Source: Nanobdellota archaeon (lineage in GTDB: Archaea > Nanobdellota > Nanobdellia > Woesearchaeales > GW2011-AR4). From it: a stretch of 64,000 nucleotides of DNA. Of the stretch, positions 23,627 through 58,844 are shown in pieces (within the stretch, counting starts at the first letter, position 1; each line of letters opens with the position of its first letter). The position numbers and the translations under genes were made by a program. The notes under the pieces are model-generated. The model made no database searches. It was not told the origin of the DNA and saw nothing but the letters and a program-made list of their open reading frames with translations. The DNA lies in the NCBI GenBank assembly GCA_038046385.1, contig JBBSWH010000005.1, positions 32,001-96,000 of the forward strand, read 5' to 3'.

Positions 23627-26041
23627 CTATCGCTTTTTACGTATTTTCTTTTCTAACTTGCCTATAGCCATTGTAGTTTTAATGACAGTATCCGGATTCA
23701 ACGATATGCTGTCTATGCCACATTGTACTAAAAATAGCGCAAAGTCCTCATAATCGCTGCTCGCTTGTCCGCAAATTCCGATCTTTGTATGATTTCGTTT
23801 GCATTTGTGAATTGCTTCCCAAATCATTCTCTTGACAGCAGGATTGCGTTCGTCATACAGTCTCGATACAAGTTCAGAGTCTCTATCCAAACCAAGCGTC
23901 AATTGCGTCAAATCATTGCTTCCGATTGAAAATCCGTCAAATACCTTGGCAAATTCATCTGCAAGAATCACGTTGGCTGGAATTTCGCACATGACATAAA
24001 TCTCAAGCTCGTTCTTTCCCCTTTCAAGCCCGTATTTCTTCATTTCTGCAACAACTGCCTTTCCTTCGTCAACTGTCCTGCAGAATGGTATCATGAGCTT
24101 TATGTTTGTAAGTCCCATTTCTTCTCTTGCTTTTTTCATTGCCAAACATTCAAGAGCAAAAGCTTCCCTGTAATTGCCGGTGTAGTATCTTGAAGCGCCT
24201 CTCCACCCAATCATTGGATTTTCTTCTTTTGGCTCAAAATCATGTCCGCCAATCAGATTGGCGTATTCGTTTGACTTAAAATCGGACATTCTTACGATAA
24301 CATCTTTCGGATAGAATGCGGCTGCAATCATTGCAACTCCCTGTGAAAGCTTTTCTATGAAAAAATCAGTCTTGCTTTTGTAAGGATATGCAAGCTCGTC
24401 AATTATTGCCTTTACTTTCTTATCCTTTAATTTTGAGTAATGCATCAGCGCAAGAGGGTGCACTTTTATGTAGGAGCTTATGATAAACTCCTCCCTCGCC
24501 AATCCAACACCGTCATTTGGAATGAATGAGAATTCAAAAGCGCTGTCGGGGTTGCCGACGTTCATCATTATTTTTGTTTTTGGCCTGGTTAATTTTCTTA
24601 AGTCTGTTTTTTTTACATCATACTTTAATTTGCCGCTGTAAACATTTCCAACTTCCCCTTCTGCGCAGGATACTGTGACATCAATTCCGTTTTTGATAAG
24701 CTCTGTGCCGTTCTCTGTTCCGACAATTGCAGGTATTCCGAGCTCTCTTGCTATTATTGCAGCGTGCGCTGTTCTTCCGCCCTTGTTTGTTACAATGGCA
24801 GATGCAATTTTCATAATAGGCTCCCAGTCCGGGTCTGTTTTTTCTGTTATCAGAATTTCTCCCTGCTTGAAATTTCCGATGTCATTGGCATTTTTTATCA
24901 CATGGGATTTTCCAACTCCTATTTTTCTTCCAACACTCAATCCTGTTGCAATGATTTTGCTTCTTCCTTTTAGTATATATTCTTCAAAGAAATTGAAATT
25001 CTTCTGGCTTTGGACAGTTTCCGGCCTTGCCTGCACTATGAAAAGCTGTCCTGTAATGCCATCTTTTGCCCACTCCATATCCATCGGCTTGAATTTTTTT
25101 GCCTTCTTGGAATAATAATCTTCTATTATGCATGCCCACTCTGCAAGTTTCAGAATTTCATTGTCATTGATGACGAATTTGAAGCGGTCTTCATATGGCA
25201 CTTCTACGTTTTCTGTTGTTTGCTTAACTTTGTCACTGTAAATCATCTTTATTCTTTTGCTACCGAGCTTTTTGCTTAAAATCGGCTTGAAGCCTTTTTT
25301 CAGAGTCGGCTTGAAAACATAAAACTGGTCTGGATTAACTGCGCCAAGAACAACATTTTCTCCAAGTCCGTAAGAGCCTGTAATGAGAGCAGCGTCCTTG
25401 AAACCAGTTTCTGTGTCTATTGAGAACATTACTCCGGAGCATGCCTTGTCGCTCCTAACCATTTTCTGCACTCCAATTGACAATGCAATCTTAAAATGGT
25501 CAAACTTTTTATCGACTCTGTATGAAATTGCGCGGTTTGTGAATAATGAAGCAAAACACTTTTTGCATGCTTCTATAAGGGCGTGGTCGCCCCTTATGTT
25601 AAGGTAAGTTTCCTGCTGGCCTGCAAAGCTTGCATCAGGCAAATCTTCTGCTGTTGCAGAGCTTCTTACTGCAACGTCTGTGTTTGGACCATATTCCTTG
25701 CACAGTTTTTTGTAAGATGCTGTTATTTCTTCTACTAGCTCTTTTGGAAACTCTGCTTTTAATATTATTTCACGCACTTTTCTTCCCCTTTCGGAGAGGT
25801 TATGCATGTTTCCTGTATCGAGCCCTTTCAGCGTGTTTTTTATGTTGTCCCTTATCTTTGCCTTTTCAAGAAGATAATTGTAAGCGTATGCCGTTACTGC
25901 AAATCCGTTTGGAATTCTAACTCCTTTTGAAGTTAAATTTCTGTACATCTCCCCTAAAGAAGCATTTTTTCCGCCGACGAGAGGAACATCTTCTATTGAA
26001 AGCTCATTAAACCATAGAATAAACCTCTTTTTTTTATCCAA
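23627..26041 (-). CDS. ppsA: Phosphoenolpyruvate synthase
   Basis: VGGKNASLGEM, VAVRSSATAEDLPDASFAGQQET, GGRTAHAAI, SIGSNDLTQ. Confidence 0.97.
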   Translation of the reverse strand: MDKKKRFILWFNELSIEDVPLVGGKNASLGEMYRNLTSKGVRIPNGFAVTAYAYNYLLEKAKIRDNIKNTLKGLDTGNMHNLSERGRKVREIILKAEFPKELVEEITASYKKLCKEYGPNTDVAVRSSATAEDLPDASFAGQQETYLNIRGDHALIEACKKCFASLFTNRAISYRVDKKFDHFKIALSIGVQKMVRSDKACSGVMFSIDTETGFKDAALITGSYGLGENVVLGAVNPDQFYVFKPTLKKGFKPILSKKLGSKRIKMIYSDKVKQTTENVEVPYEDRFKFVINDNEILKLAEWACIIEDYYSKKAKKFKPMDMEWAKDGITGQLFIVQARPETVQSQKNFNFFEEYILKGRSKIIATGLSVGRKIGVGKSHVIKNANDIGNFKQGEILITEKTDPDWEPIMKIASAIVTNKGGRTAHAAIIARELGIPAIVGTENGTELIKNGIDVTVSCAEGEVGNVYSGKLKYDVKKTDLRKLTRPKTKIMMNVGNPDSAFEFSFIPNDGVGLAREEFIISSYIKVHPLALMHYSKLKDKKVKAIIDELAYPYKSKTDFFIEKLSQGVAMIAAAFYPKDVIVRMSDFKSNEYANLIGGHDFEPKEENPMIGWRGASRYYTGNYREAFALECLAMKKAREEMGLTNIKLMIPFCRTVDEGKAVVAEMKKYGLERGKNELEIYVMCEIPANVILADEFAKVFDGFSIGSNDLTQLTLGLDRDSELVSRLYDERNPAVKRMIWEAIHKCKRNHTKIGICGQASSDYEDFALFLVQCGIDSISLNPDTVIKTTMAIGKLEKKIRKKR

Positions 26042-46796: not shown

Positions 46797-46857
46797 AAGA
46801 GAACCTAACATTAATCCAAATAACATTTATAAATGGACTAGATGTACTTACCAGTAT

Positions 46858-46994
46858 GCCGAGGTCGCATAGCCTGGTATTGCGGTGATTTCTGAAAAGA
46901 AACCGTATGATTGCTAGGCTTACGCTTTTTGGAGTAAGTGTTATAAAAATCCACTGTCCGAAAGGATCCGGGGGTTCAAATCCTCCCCTCGGCG
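46858..46994 (+). tRNA. tRNA-Ser(GCT) with two introns (46888-46908 at 29/30; 46917-46948 at 37/38)
   Basis: Removing both gives anticodon arm GTGGA-TTGCTAA-TCCAC; acceptor GCCGAGG/CCTCGGC, G73, long variable arm, TTCAAAT; intron 1 has a BHB (GCGG/CCGT, bulges TGA and ATG). Confidence 0.88.
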
Positions 46995-47008
46995 TTTATT
47001 TTAATAAA

Positions 47009-49700: not shown

Positions 49701-50558
49701 ATGATGACAGATAGTATAGGAAAAAATGTCAACCTCATAGGATGGATGGACAATTTTTATAGTACTGCTCCCTGTGAAGTCAGACTGGAAGGGCTTGAGA
49801 GCAGGATAATAAAAGCGTCAAATCCAAGCGGGCTGCTTGATTTGTTTAACCCTAATGCAGAAAGGATTGCGACACTGGGAGAAATAGCCACTGCAAGAGT
49901 AATTGCACTTGATTATTTATTTGAAATGGTTCCTAATTTAAGCGATATGTTTGCAATAAGTCATATCTGCAAACTCGATAGTGTGATTGACATTGACCAA
50001 GCAATGCTTGGAAGAATCCTGAAAGCATTTGTAAGATATCCTGAAATATTCGGAATATGGCAGGAAAGATTGACTGCATCAACGCATATGGTAAGGGGGA
50101 TTGATGACAATCAAGATAAAATTTTCTTTGCCGATGGAAATAAATTTGATAGAACTATTGACTACAAAAAAGCATTGGAAGGAGAATTATCAGATGGTGG
50201 AATACGCTATGGCGATGAAACTCTAAGTAATATGGCTGATAAGTCTTACTCCTCTTTATCACTTGCGTCTTATTTGGATGCAAAAGGCGGAAAATTCAAT
50301 GGCTCAGAATTATTTAATCATCCAATATTCAAGGCAGCTTTGAATGATGATGCGCTTAGAAGCCAGTATGTATTGGCACTGCAGTTGCTTGATTTTGTAA
50401 GCATTCATGATGCAGGAAGATATGCACTTTGGCGTCCTGGTGGAATGAAACCAGGATTTGGGAGGCAGATATCTCTTGGATATAAAGGCGAGACATTCTA
50501 TCCGCCGAATAATGACACAGTAGGACATGCTGCACTAGTATTACCAATAAAATCCTGA
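49701..50558 (+). CDS. Hypothetical protein
   Basis: 285-aa ORF divergent from the Lrp gene; no recognised motif. Confidence 0.65.
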   Translation: MMTDSIGKNVNLIGWMDNFYSTAPCEVRLEGLESRIIKASNPSGLLDLFNPNAERIATLGEIATARVIALDYLFEMVPNLSDMFAISHICKLDSVIDIDQAMLGRILKAFVRYPEIFGIWQERLTASTHMVRGIDDNQDKIFFADGNKFDRTIDYKKALEGELSDGGIRYGDETLSNMADKSYSSLSLASYLDAKGGKFNGSELFNHPIFKAALNDDALRSQYVLALQLLDFVSIHDAGRYALWRPGGMKPGFGRQISLGYKGETFYPPNNDTVGHAALVLPIKS

Positions 50559-50579
50559 ATTTAATTTTTATTCAGCAAC

Positions 50580-50619
50580 CTTTATATGAAGAAAATCAAA
50601 GATTTTCTAATATAAAAGT
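50580..50619 (+). repeat. 40-bp palindromic dispersed repeat, copy 2
   Basis: 37/40 match to the reverse complement of 26109-26148. Confidence 0.75.
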
Positions 50620-50670
50620 TCGAACTGAGTTCGATACTTTTATAAAACGACTTCTTATACTAAATGCTAT

Positions 50671-50845
50671 AGCGGGGTAGGGCAGCCAGGAGTGCCCGAT
50701 GAGGTTGCTTATGAATAAGAAGCAGCCGCGGAAGGCTCATAAGCACATCGAAATGCCTTAGACACCCATACCAGCCTCTAAAGCTGGGGTTAAAGGTCGG
50801 AAGTTCAAAAACCATTAATTTGGTCTGGAAGTCTTCCCCCCGCTA
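50671..50845 (+). tRNA. Initiator tRNA-Met(CAT) with four introns (50702-50733, 50742-50763, 50770-50793, 50810-50831)
   Basis: Joined exons give a 75-nt cloverleaf AGCGGGG..ATGGG-CTCATAA-CCCAT-AGGTC-GGAAG-TTCAAAT-CTTCC-CCCCGCTA with A1-U72 and three G-C anticodon-stem pairs. Confidence 0.88.
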
Positions 50846-50890
50846 CTTTTCTTCACAAAGCTTTTATAACAATATCGTTCTACAGCTTTT

Positions 50891-51565
50891 ATGATAATCT
50901 GCGGTATTGATGAAGCTGGTCGCGGTCCATTAATCGGCCCTATGGTGATGGCCGGCGTTCTGATAGATGAAAAAGACGAGGCTAAATTCAAGGCTATCGG
51001 TGTAAAAGATTCTAAACTGCTAACCCCTTTCCAAAGAAAAGACCTATTTGACAAAATAAAATCCATTTCTAAAAAATACAAGATAATAATTGTGCAGCCT
51101 GATGAAATAGATGATGCTGTTTTTGGAAAAGGTGGATTAAACCTAAACTGGCTTGAAGCAAACACTTCTGTAAAAATACTAAATGAACTAAATCCTGAAA
51201 AGGCAATAGTTGATGCTCCGAGCCCGAACATAAAAAAATACACAGAATACATAAGAGAAAAGCTTGACAACAAAAAGGTGAAGCTTGTTTTGGAACATAA
51301 GGCGGATGTTAATTATCCTGTTGTCGGCGCAGCTTCGATTCTTGCAAAAGTCACAAGGGACAATGAAATCGAGAAAATAAAAAAGCAGATTGGAATTGAC
51401 TTTGGAAGCGGGTACATGTCTGATCCAAAAACGTCTGAGTTCTTGAAAAAACACCACAATAAATTTCCCGAGATTTTCAGGAAGAGCTGGGCGCCCTATC
51501 AGAAGATTGCAGACAAAAAGATGCAGAAAAATTTATCTGATTTCTCCAAATTCATTAAAGAGTAA
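50891..51565 (+). CDS. rnhB: Ribonuclease HII
   Basis: GIDEAGRGP, VKDSK, KAD, AASILAKV, GSGY. Confidence 0.96.
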   Translation: MIICGIDEAGRGPLIGPMVMAGVLIDEKDEAKFKAIGVKDSKLLTPFQRKDLFDKIKSISKKYKIIIVQPDEIDDAVFGKGGLNLNWLEANTSVKILNELNPEKAIVDAPSPNIKKYTEYIREKLDNKKVKLVLEHKADVNYPVVGAASILAKVTRDNEIEKIKKQIGIDFGSGYMSDPKTSEFLKKHHNKFPEIFRKSWAPYQKIADKKMQKNLSDFSKFIKE

Positions 51566-57980: not shown

Positions 57981-58691
57981 ATGATACAGAAAACGAAAGA
58001 AGAGTATTTGAAAGAACATAAGAATTGGGGCAGTATTAAACTTATCAATTTTCCCGAAAAGAATGAAAGATTGGCAGAGCTTGTCGGCATAATTCTTGGT
58101 GATGGTAACCTACATGTTTATACAAAAGGTAGTAATGTGGGAACTTATTCTTTAAGAATAGCTGGAAATTACATAAAAGATCATGAATATCTTACAAATT
58201 ATGTGGCTAGTTTGTGCAAAGACTTGTTTATGGTTAAGCCTAGGACATACAAACAGCCAAATGTAAATTGCATTTATCTTATAATTGATGGTAGGCTAAT
58301 TATAGATTTTTTAATTGAGATTGGATTAAAAAGCGGCAACAAAATAAAAAGTCAAGTTACAATACCCGATTGGATTATGGAAAATAATGAATATCTTAAA
58401 TCATGCATAAGGGGATTGATAGATACCGATGGCTGCGTTTATGAAATGCTGCCTCATTGGCCAGGCTTGTTCCAGATTAATTTTGAGAACAGAAACATAA
58501 CTTTGTTGAGAGATACAAGAGAGGCTTTGATAAAGCTAGGCTATCACCCTTCTAAAATTTGTGGCAATAGAACGCAATTCGGAACTAAAATTTATATCTC
58601 TCGAAAGGAAGAAATCAAAAGATTTTATAAAGAGATTGGGTCTAGCAACGATAGGAATATAAAACAATTCACTAAAGTGTTTAACTCATAG
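57981..58691 (+). CDS. Free-standing double-motif LAGLIDADG endonuclease
   Basis: LAELVGIILGDG and CIRGLIDTDG motifs; SD GGAGG before ATG 57981. Confidence 0.88.
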   Translation: MIQKTKEEYLKEHKNWGSIKLINFPEKNERLAELVGIILGDGNLHVYTKGSNVGTYSLRIAGNYIKDHEYLTNYVASLCKDLFMVKPRTYKQPNVNCIYLIIDGRLIIDFLIEIGLKSGNKIKSQVTIPDWIMENNEYLKSCIRGLIDTDGCVYEMLPHWPGLFQINFENRNITLLRDTREALIKLGYHPSKICGNRTQFGTKIYISRKEEIKRFYKEIGSSNDRNIKQFTKVFNS

Positions 58692-58780
58692 CCCCGTAGT
58701 CTAGCGGTCACTTGAATAAAGCTGCAGAAGGATTCGGCCCTTTGGAGGCTGAGGCGGCAGTTCGAATCTGCCCGGGGCTA
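58690..58780 (+). tRNA. tRNA-Gln(TTG) with 18-nt D-loop intron (58710-58727)
   Basis: AGCCCCG/CGGGGCT acceptor, CGGCC-CTTTGGA-GGCTG anticodon arm, GGCAG-TTCGAAT-CTGCC; BHB-like GCGG/CTGC with bulges TCA and AGA. Confidence 0.88.
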
Positions 58781-58844
58781 TATTTTAATTTTCTCTTGAT
58801 TATGGGCAATACTTAGATATACCTTACCAATATTTCTCTAAACT

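Follow-up and report, generated by a model that had tools for sequence, protein, structure and literature searches.

A probable initiator tRNA-Met gene with four bulge-helix-bulge introns, and a series of zero to six introns among its orthologues in a genus of DPANN archaea

Is a tRNA sequence broken into five pieces within 175 nt a working gene, and how might such a gene be spliced? The question is raised by positions 50671-50845 (plus strand) of the window, meaning the whole 64,000-nt stretch of DNA analysed here, which comes from a genus of Woesearchaeota-type DPANN archaea. These positions (AGCGGGG...CCCCGCTA) hold an initiator tRNA-Met(CAU) gene of five exons and four inserts, set in a 332-nt intergenic gap bounded upstream by an open reading frame (end at 50558) and downstream by an RNase HII gene (start at 50891). 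Exon 1 (50671-50701, 31 nt) supplies the 5' strand of the acceptor stem, the D arm and anticodon-stem positions 27-29, and exon 2 (50734-50741, 8 nt) supplies G30, G31 and the anticodon loop as far as A37, CAT included. Exon 3 (50764-50769, 6 nt) contributes A38 and the 3' strand of the anticodon stem, C39-T43. Exon 4 (50794-50809, 16 nt) contributes the variable loop, the 5' strand of the T stem and the T loop to A59, and exon 5 (50832-50845, 14 nt) contributes T60, the 3' strands of the T and acceptor stems, and the discriminator A73. CCA is not encoded after A73. A TATA-box-like TTTATAAA (50639-50646), on the plus strand like all the exons, lies 24 nt upstream of tRNA position 1 and would be the promoter; the (C)GTTTATAAA motif is also present upstream of the orthologues inspected, with a spacing of 24-25 nt kept. 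The T-rich tail CTTTTCTT (50846-50853, plus strand), directly after A73, is a likely transcription stop.

Archaeal initiator tRNAs are marked by a CAU anticodon, an A1:U72 pair and three G:C pairs at 29-31:39-41. When the five exons are joined by their coordinates, the resulting 75 nt are called tRNA-Met(cat) [1,75] by ARAGORN with a full cloverleaf, and CAU, A1:U72 and G29-G31:C39-C41 are all present in it. A preliminary description of this DNA had given exons of 31, 8, 6, 16 and 14 nt, inserts of 32, 22, 24 and 22 nt and an initiator identity based on these same marks; the lengths are exact and the identity holds. Against the intronless orthologue of a congener (G002), the spliced product is identical at 74 of 75 positions, and the traceback of the spliced alignment opens four gaps at the insert sites.

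The 75-nt intronless template from G002 was also aligned, with free long gaps, to both strands of all 19 contigs of the assembly (1.28 Mb). The initiator locus scored 56.0 and the next best locus in the whole assembly 17.0, so the parse stands far above chance. In these 1.28 Mb, the spliced alignment revealed no second initiator tRNA gene, and a BLAST search of the whole assembly with the intronless template matched exon fragments of the split locus only. With the completeness of the assembly at 85%, the missing part could still harbour another tRNA copy or another subunit of the splicing endonuclease EndA. Two other architectures were considered and rejected. A split or permuted, trans-spliced tRNA gene is ruled out by the collinearity of the five exons within 175 nt. 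Group I and group II self-splicing introns are ruled out by the size of the inserts (22-32 nt) and by the lack of any Rfam family at 50671-50845, even at E<=10. We propose that the locus is functional, that it is interrupted by four bulge-helix-bulge (BHB) introns, and that it is the only initiator tRNA-Met gene of the cell; judged from sequence, this reading has in our estimate a probability of about 0.9.

In a BHB motif, the 5' exon ends in four helix bases followed by two bulge bases, and the intron ends likewise. Intron 1 (50702-50733, plus strand, 32 nt) lies at 29/30. Its central helix, CCGA/GCGG, pairs at three of four positions between bulges TG|A and AA|G, with an outer helix of 2 bp and an inner hairpin of 8 bp, GGTTGCTT/AAGCAGCC. 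Intron 2 (50742-50763, plus strand, 22 nt) occupies the canonical position 37/38, with central helix CTCA/TTAG (three of four pairs), bulges TA|A and AC|A and an inner helix of 3 bp. Its outer helix has 2 bp in the precursor; after removal of introns 1 and 3, the anticodon stem (5 bp) would take that role. Intron 3 (50770-50793, plus strand, 24 nt), at 43/44, has central helix ACCC/GGTT (three of four), bulges AT|A and AA|A and a 5-bp inner hairpin, CCAGC/GCTGG; it is without a real outer helix and belongs to the HBh' type. Intron 4 (50810-50831, plus strand, 22 nt), at 59/60, has all four central pairs (TTCA/TGGA, one of them G-U), bulges AA|A and AG|T and a 4-bp inner hairpin. Its outer helix is the 5-bp T stem, giving a full hBHBh' motif, and it is the only intron with a full outer helix in the precursor.

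The strict or relaxed BHB geometry read earlier, TTCA/TGGA with its bulges included, is thus borne out, with a central-helix mismatch in three of the four introns. Spliced alignment likewise confirms the four insert positions given there, two of which can slide by one base. Positions 29/30 and 59/60 are unambiguous; the second insert may be placed at 37/38 or 38/39 (two equivalent placements) and the third at 43/44 or 44/45, and the BHB register favours 37/38 and 43/44.

Several observations beyond this one gene bear on the motif. The precursor folds better than its own shuffles (z = -3.1). As a class test, 172 introns from 135 unique DPANN initiator genes were compared with controls made from six shifts of the 3' register by 1-3 nt. 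At least three of four central-helix pairs formed in 143 of the 172 introns in the true register versus 10-41 in the shifted controls. Some boundaries had been misplaced in genes whose T stem differs from that of the template. After refinement by pairing in the mature cloverleaf the count was 159 of 172 against 2-30 in controls, a refinement that used the BHB score as a tie-break and is mildly biased towards the motif. The 32 introns of the 29/30 class show 25 distinct inner-helix sequences; at least three of four central-helix pairs form in all 32, and the inner helix reaches 3 bp or more in 28.

The hairpins themselves vary in a paired manner. Intron 1 matches a homologous 32-nt intron in the congener G017 at 29 of 32 positions. 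The three differences all fall within the hairpin with pairing kept, one being a compensatory change from C:G to U:A and another a change from G-U to G-C. Among congeners, the hairpin of the 43/44 intron occurs in the compensatory variants CCAGC/GCTGG, CTAGC/GCTAG, TTAGC/GCTAA and TTAGT/ACTAA. When the genome was searched by blastn-short for further copies of the four introns, paralogous or mobile, each intron significantly matched only itself.

The distribution of introns in orthologues was then followed through the genus, for which our collection holds 43 species-level genomes (G000 being that of the window). An orthologue was located in 27 of the 43, complete in 26 and cut by a contig end in one; the queries matched none in the other 16. 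Over the 26 complete orthologues, intron number ranges from 0 to 6 across eight positions: 13/14, 15/16, 20a/21, 29/30, 37/38, 43/44, 53/54 and 59/60. The gene of G002 has no intron. Single introns are found at 15/16 (G006, G012) or at 53/54 (G042, G046), and pairs at 29/30 and 37/38 (G011, G014, G017) or at 13/14 and 53/54 (G053). Three introns occur at 13/14, 29/30 and 37/38 (G007, G013, G021, G049), at 13/14, 37/38 and 43/44 (G050, G055), or at 29/30, 37/38 and 43/44 in G015, where the T loop contains a tandem duplication of 11 nt that the alignment counts as a fourth. Four are found at 29/30, 37/38, 43/44 and 59/60 in the window genome and G043, at 20a/21, 37/38, 43/44 and 59/60 in G001, at 13/14, 29/30, 37/38 and 43/44 in G009 and G045, and at 13/14, 29/30, 37/38 and 59/60 in G010. 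Five (13/14, 29/30, 37/38, 43/44, 59/60) interrupt the genes of G004 and G008, and six (the same five and 53/54) those of G020 (222 nt) and G023 (224 nt), whose layouts share 93% identity over 256 nt. Congeners therefore hold both subsets and supersets of the introns in the window, at identical sites. The exact four-intron combination is found in the window genome only, since the introns of G043 occupy the same positions with different sequences.

These orthologues bear on whether the inserts exist in the cell at all. The window comes from a 19-contig assembly of an uncultured organism, and its exact intron combination is unique to it, as might be expected if the inserts were chimeric joins or collapsed variants of a mixed population. 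Independent assemblies, however, repeat each intron type at its own site: G017 has intron 1 (the 29-of-32 match above), and G001, G004, G043 and others have introns at 37/38, 43/44 and 59/60. In addition, the joins fall exactly in BHB register and restore a perfect tRNA, which makes an assembly artefact extremely improbable.

A second alternative accepts the inserts and denies their removal. The locus would then be a decaying pseudogene that has suffered four insertions and stays unspliced, with a working copy in the unassembled 15% of the genome. Decay is hard to reconcile with exons that are free of lesions and agree with the intronless orthologue at 74 of 75 positions, with inserts that all lie in BHB register, with a conserved promoter or with compensatory changes in the intron hairpins. 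G020, 99% complete, also carries a split copy only, with six introns; there, as in G023, G004 and G008, BLAST with the intronless template matched nothing other than exon fragments of the split gene. We consider a pseudogene very unlikely, even granting that the assembly of the window genome is 85% complete and that three central helices contain a mismatch. A look-up of public sequencing runs covering 50560-50900 listed no RNA run. A functional four-intron gene remains the reading that we prefer.

The 22-nt 5' end of the gene is found in at least 120 public archaeal contigs. Among the 80 matches listed, most recognisable lineage names belong to DPANN (Woesearchaeota, Nanoarchaeia, Micrarchaeota, Iainarchaeum, Aenigmatarchaeota, Nanohaloarchaea), while about 15 contigs are titled uncultured Methanosarcinales and others simply 'archaeon'. 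The 135 unique DPANN initiator genes used above are a non-random set: its named loci were fetched with an uninterrupted 5' 22-mer, a query that leaves out genes with early introns. Within this set, 53, 39, 17, 11, 11, 2 and 2 genes carry 0, 1, 2, 3, 4, 5 and 6 introns, respectively. After splicing in a script, 133 of the 135 products were called tRNA-Met(cat) by ARAGORN (the failures being L049 and L156), including all 11 four-intron genes and both genes in each of the five- and six-intron classes.

Some features of the surrounding DNA were recorded alongside the introns. The duplication in the T arm of G015 (L003 1540-1699; also L107 and L137) consists of AAGTTCAAATC twice over 11-nt units, and may represent a minimal intron, a lesion or an assembly quirk. 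A conserved GAGGACTGGGAGTTAAATTCTCTCGGTTCTC-like hairpin stands directly after A73 in six congener loci (L003, L010, L164, L171, L175, L176) and is absent from the window, and CACTGGACA repeats occur further downstream of the initiator gene in several congeners. The open reading frame upstream of the tRNA (49701-50558, plus strand) encodes 285 aa; of the congeners, only G043 has it beside its own initiator gene (39% identity), and G043 is also the only one sharing the four intron positions of the window. It was considered as a possible homing endonuclease and set aside, as it matches no Pfam or NCBIfam family.

The unspliced gene escapes both of the standard tRNA finders applied to it, as had been anticipated. 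ARAGORN detected no tRNA at the locus, either in default mode on the window or in intron mode on the precursor. Rfam returned nothing in the window at the gathering score; a threshold relaxed to E<=10 for the surroundings of the locus gave seven chance-level matches, none of them a tRNA and none overlapping the gene. The prediction is thus upheld for ARAGORN in both modes and for the Rfam tRNA model. Over the whole genome, ARAGORN in intron mode reports 24 tRNAs (19 with an intron call, Met not among them), and Rfam reports 18 above its cut-off. Rfam tRNA matches number 14 in G002, 11 in G046 and 14 (at E<=0.001) in G039, a genome from the same order that is complete in one contig. Most tRNA genes of the order appear to be hidden from standard models. 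The intronless tRNA templates available from the collected loci are mostly tRNA-Met (65 of 110), with many tRNA types missing. Genomes of this lineage seem to lack an initiator tRNA because ARAGORN and Rfam both miss the split gene, and the annotation of DPANN genomes and estimates of their completeness are affected when an indispensable tRNA is overlooked.

Two further loci in the window attracted attention during these scans. At 46857-46995 (plus strand), ARAGORN in intron mode calls a tRNA-Gln(ctg) of which 96 nt remain after one intron is removed. By eye the locus looks like a tRNA of the Ser(GCU) type with two introns near 29/30 and 37/38, and the tRNA-Gln label is probably wrong. At 58689-58781 (plus strand), the same mode calls a tRNA-Cys(gca) with an 11-nt intron, an 82-nt product and a poor D arm, probably another mis-parsed multi-intron tRNA.

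The genome encodes homologues of both enzymes expected to act on such a precursor. A single EndA gene (contig C6, L013:1186-1788) encodes a 200-aa protein matching PF02778 and PF01974, which is closest to the N. equitans alpha subunit and the EndAs of M. kandleri and M. jannaschii, with the N. equitans and M. jannaschii proteins as its best solved relatives. The EndA catalytic domain was matched in 34 of the 43 genomes of the genus, by a single match in all but G043. Residues 34-200 align to the alpha4 enzyme of M. jannaschii with no insert of three or more residues. The short inserts seen around the catalytic histidine in the N. equitans and ARMAN-2 enzymes are absent, and the N-terminus carries a Lys-rich extension of about 30 aa. 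The protein looks like a plain alpha-type enzyme of the alpha4 class and presumably assembles as a homotetramer.

The ligase RtcB is also present (a PF01139 match of 536 bits on contig C19). Its gene is itself interrupted: a 31-nt insert (contig C19, about 25345-25375, minus strand; L192/L193) divides it into two frames within the conserved PDGHWG-Y-GFPIGG motif. The insert forms a full BHB, with central helix GGGG/CCCT, bulges AT|T and TG|A and a 9-bp hairpin. The same 31-nt insert is found in G012, G043 and G001, and the rtcB genes of G055, G049 and G014 are without it and read through. In G001 (L200), a further 12-nt insert slightly downstream contains an in-frame TAA and may be a second mini-intron.

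How, then, might four introns be removed from so short a gene? We propose that transcription from the TATA box would yield a precursor of about 175 nt, and that EndA would cut each intron after the second base of the two 3-nt bulges flanking its 4-bp helix. RtcB would then join the exons, with the introns released, and CCA would be added after splicing. Intron 4, in the T loop, would fold independently and could be removed at any time. Removal of introns 1 and 3 would precede that of the canonical intron 2, since intron 1 breaks up the anticodon stem around intron 2 and intron 3 is paired with that stem. The motifs overlap in detail: A38 is unpaired in the motif of intron 2 and paired in that of intron 3, and the anticodon stem framing intron 2 shares A27 and C39-C41 with the central helices of introns 1 and 3. 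From this overlap we weakly infer that intron 4 is independent and that intron 2 is last. The earlier suggestion that the motifs compete, and that splicing may be ordered, is plausible on the same modelling.

Folding energies were estimated with a nearest-neighbour model, which ignores protein. About 30% of the ensemble contains the BHB fold of intron 4, regardless of which other introns are still in place, except that the share drops to about 5% when introns 2 and 3 are both gone. For introns 1 and 3 the BHB fold costs 3.3-7.1 kcal/mol; for intron 2 the cost is about 10 kcal/mol as long as the precursor is complete and 6.6 kcal/mol once introns 1 and 3 have been removed. That the BHB folds of introns 1, 2 and 3 cost 3.3-10 kcal/mol in this model counts against the main explanation, as do the mismatches in three of the central helices and the missing outer helix of intron 3.

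The tail of intron 2, TGCCTTAG (50755-50763), has its complement in the 3' part of intron 3 (50783-50791). The same complementarity exists in L005, L007 and L150, with a compensatory change in G001. The tail is also complementary to the 5' strand of the D arm, and it is this D-arm pairing that appears in the minimum-energy fold. Across the genus, the 37/38 intron in its long form is found together with the 43/44 intron. The pairing of the tail may be a device for splicing order, or it may just reflect shared ancestry.

These pairings lend some weight to a variant in which the gene is real and its introns are removed in a strict order or in partly different form, for example with the 3' part of intron 3 holding the tail of intron 2 up to the cleavage of intron 3, or with boundaries at 38/39 and 44/45. 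The one-base slide of two boundaries, the double role of A38, the complementarity of the tail to both intron 3 and the D arm, and the co-occurrence of the two introns in congeners are all consistent with it. So is the three-intron tRNA of Cyanidioschyzon merolae, which, according to the part of the published account available, loses its canonical intron last in experiments (PMC3728597). The basis of the variant, however, is thermodynamic modelling and reading by eye, and the co-occurrence may be shared ancestry. We regard it as a distinct possibility that falls well short of an even chance. It is a refinement of the main explanation and does not contradict it.

The nearest published setting is the survey of DPANN endonucleases by Kaneta et al. 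(2018; PMC5829648). As presented in the available part of that paper, the alpha4-type EndAs of several DPANN lineages accompany more tRNA gene disruption, and gaps in the predicted tRNA sets are taken as a sign of disrupted genes that escaped detection; the window genome is exactly such a case. The same part ties the cleavage of relaxed motifs to loop inserts, describes an 'L3' loop in the alpha4-type EndAs of DPANN with many disrupted tRNA genes, and mentions no four-intron gene. The EndA described here differs in having no insert of three or more residues relative to that of M. jannaschii, and L3 would thus be absent from it. This absence is read from an alignment, as the source, in the part available, places L3 only 'in the C-terminus region'. 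A plain alpha4 EndA in a genus of this kind would be at odds with the published link between loops and heavy disruption.

A broader claim may be ventured at somewhat less than even odds: that the initiator gene is an intron hot spot of the genus (0-6 introns, eight positions), that the six-intron genes of G020 and G023 are the most fragmented cis-spliced tRNA genes described, and that one plain alpha4-type EndA without the published specificity loops serves them all. If this is true, the broad intron tolerance of DPANN would have another basis, such as the Lys-rich N-terminal extension or near-canonical motifs that fold in succession. The series from 0 to 6 is a natural experiment on the gain and loss of BHB introns and on the number that one tRNA tolerates. 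It also bears on whether a simple alpha4 endonuclease can work in a set order through motifs that are partly relaxed and mutually exclusive.

Multi-intron tRNA genes are best known from Thermoproteales (Sugahara et al. 2008), with up to three introns per gene according to the consulted portion of a review (PMC4390854). The likeness to the gene in the window is close: short BHB or HBh' introns at canonical and non-canonical positions of one cis-encoded gene, removal by EndA and an RNA ligase (predicted here), and genes missed by standard finders. The differences lie in number (up to three introns there, four here, and five and six in congeners), in lineage (Crenarchaeota there, Woesearchaeota-type DPANN here) and in the endonuclease, which is an (alpha-beta)2 enzyme in Thermoproteales and here appears as a single alpha-type subunit without the Crenarchaea-specific loop. 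The preliminary description had taken three introns as the known maximum. The reviews do say up to three, in the portion at hand, but the congeners reach six, and the novelty of four is weaker than was claimed.

Heavy interruption has also been described in a superphylum other than DPANN. In three Asgard genomes of Atabeyarchaeia and Freyarchaeia (Valentin-Alvarado et al. 2024; PMC11291895), the text available reports 228 tRNA introns, more than half of the tRNA genes multiply interrupted, and extra introns beyond detection by tRNAscan-SE, with per-gene counts in Supplementary Data 4. The resemblance lies in the extent of interruption and in introns that a standard tool missed. In the main texts of the literature searched on tRNA intron numbers, multi-intron tRNAs and disrupted tRNA genes, we found no tRNA gene described as carrying four introns or more. 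The series in the genus extends the 'up to three introns' of reviews, and the 2024 Asgard data, from what that text conveys, may already exceed three.

A eukaryotic parallel is the nuclear tRNA-Ile of C. merolae, which in the accessible part of its description (PMC3728597) contains three BHB-type introns, one each in the D arm, at position 37/38 and within the T loop. There, as predicted here, the outer introns leave before the canonical one, an order established by experiment in the alga. It differs in being a eukaryotic nuclear gene, acted on by a eukaryotic endonuclease, with at most three introns. Set beside these systems, the four-intron gene belongs to a known kind, the multi-intron BHB tRNA genes; what appears to be new, as far as sequence comparison can tell, is the 0-6 intron series within one genus together with a plain alpha4-type EndA.
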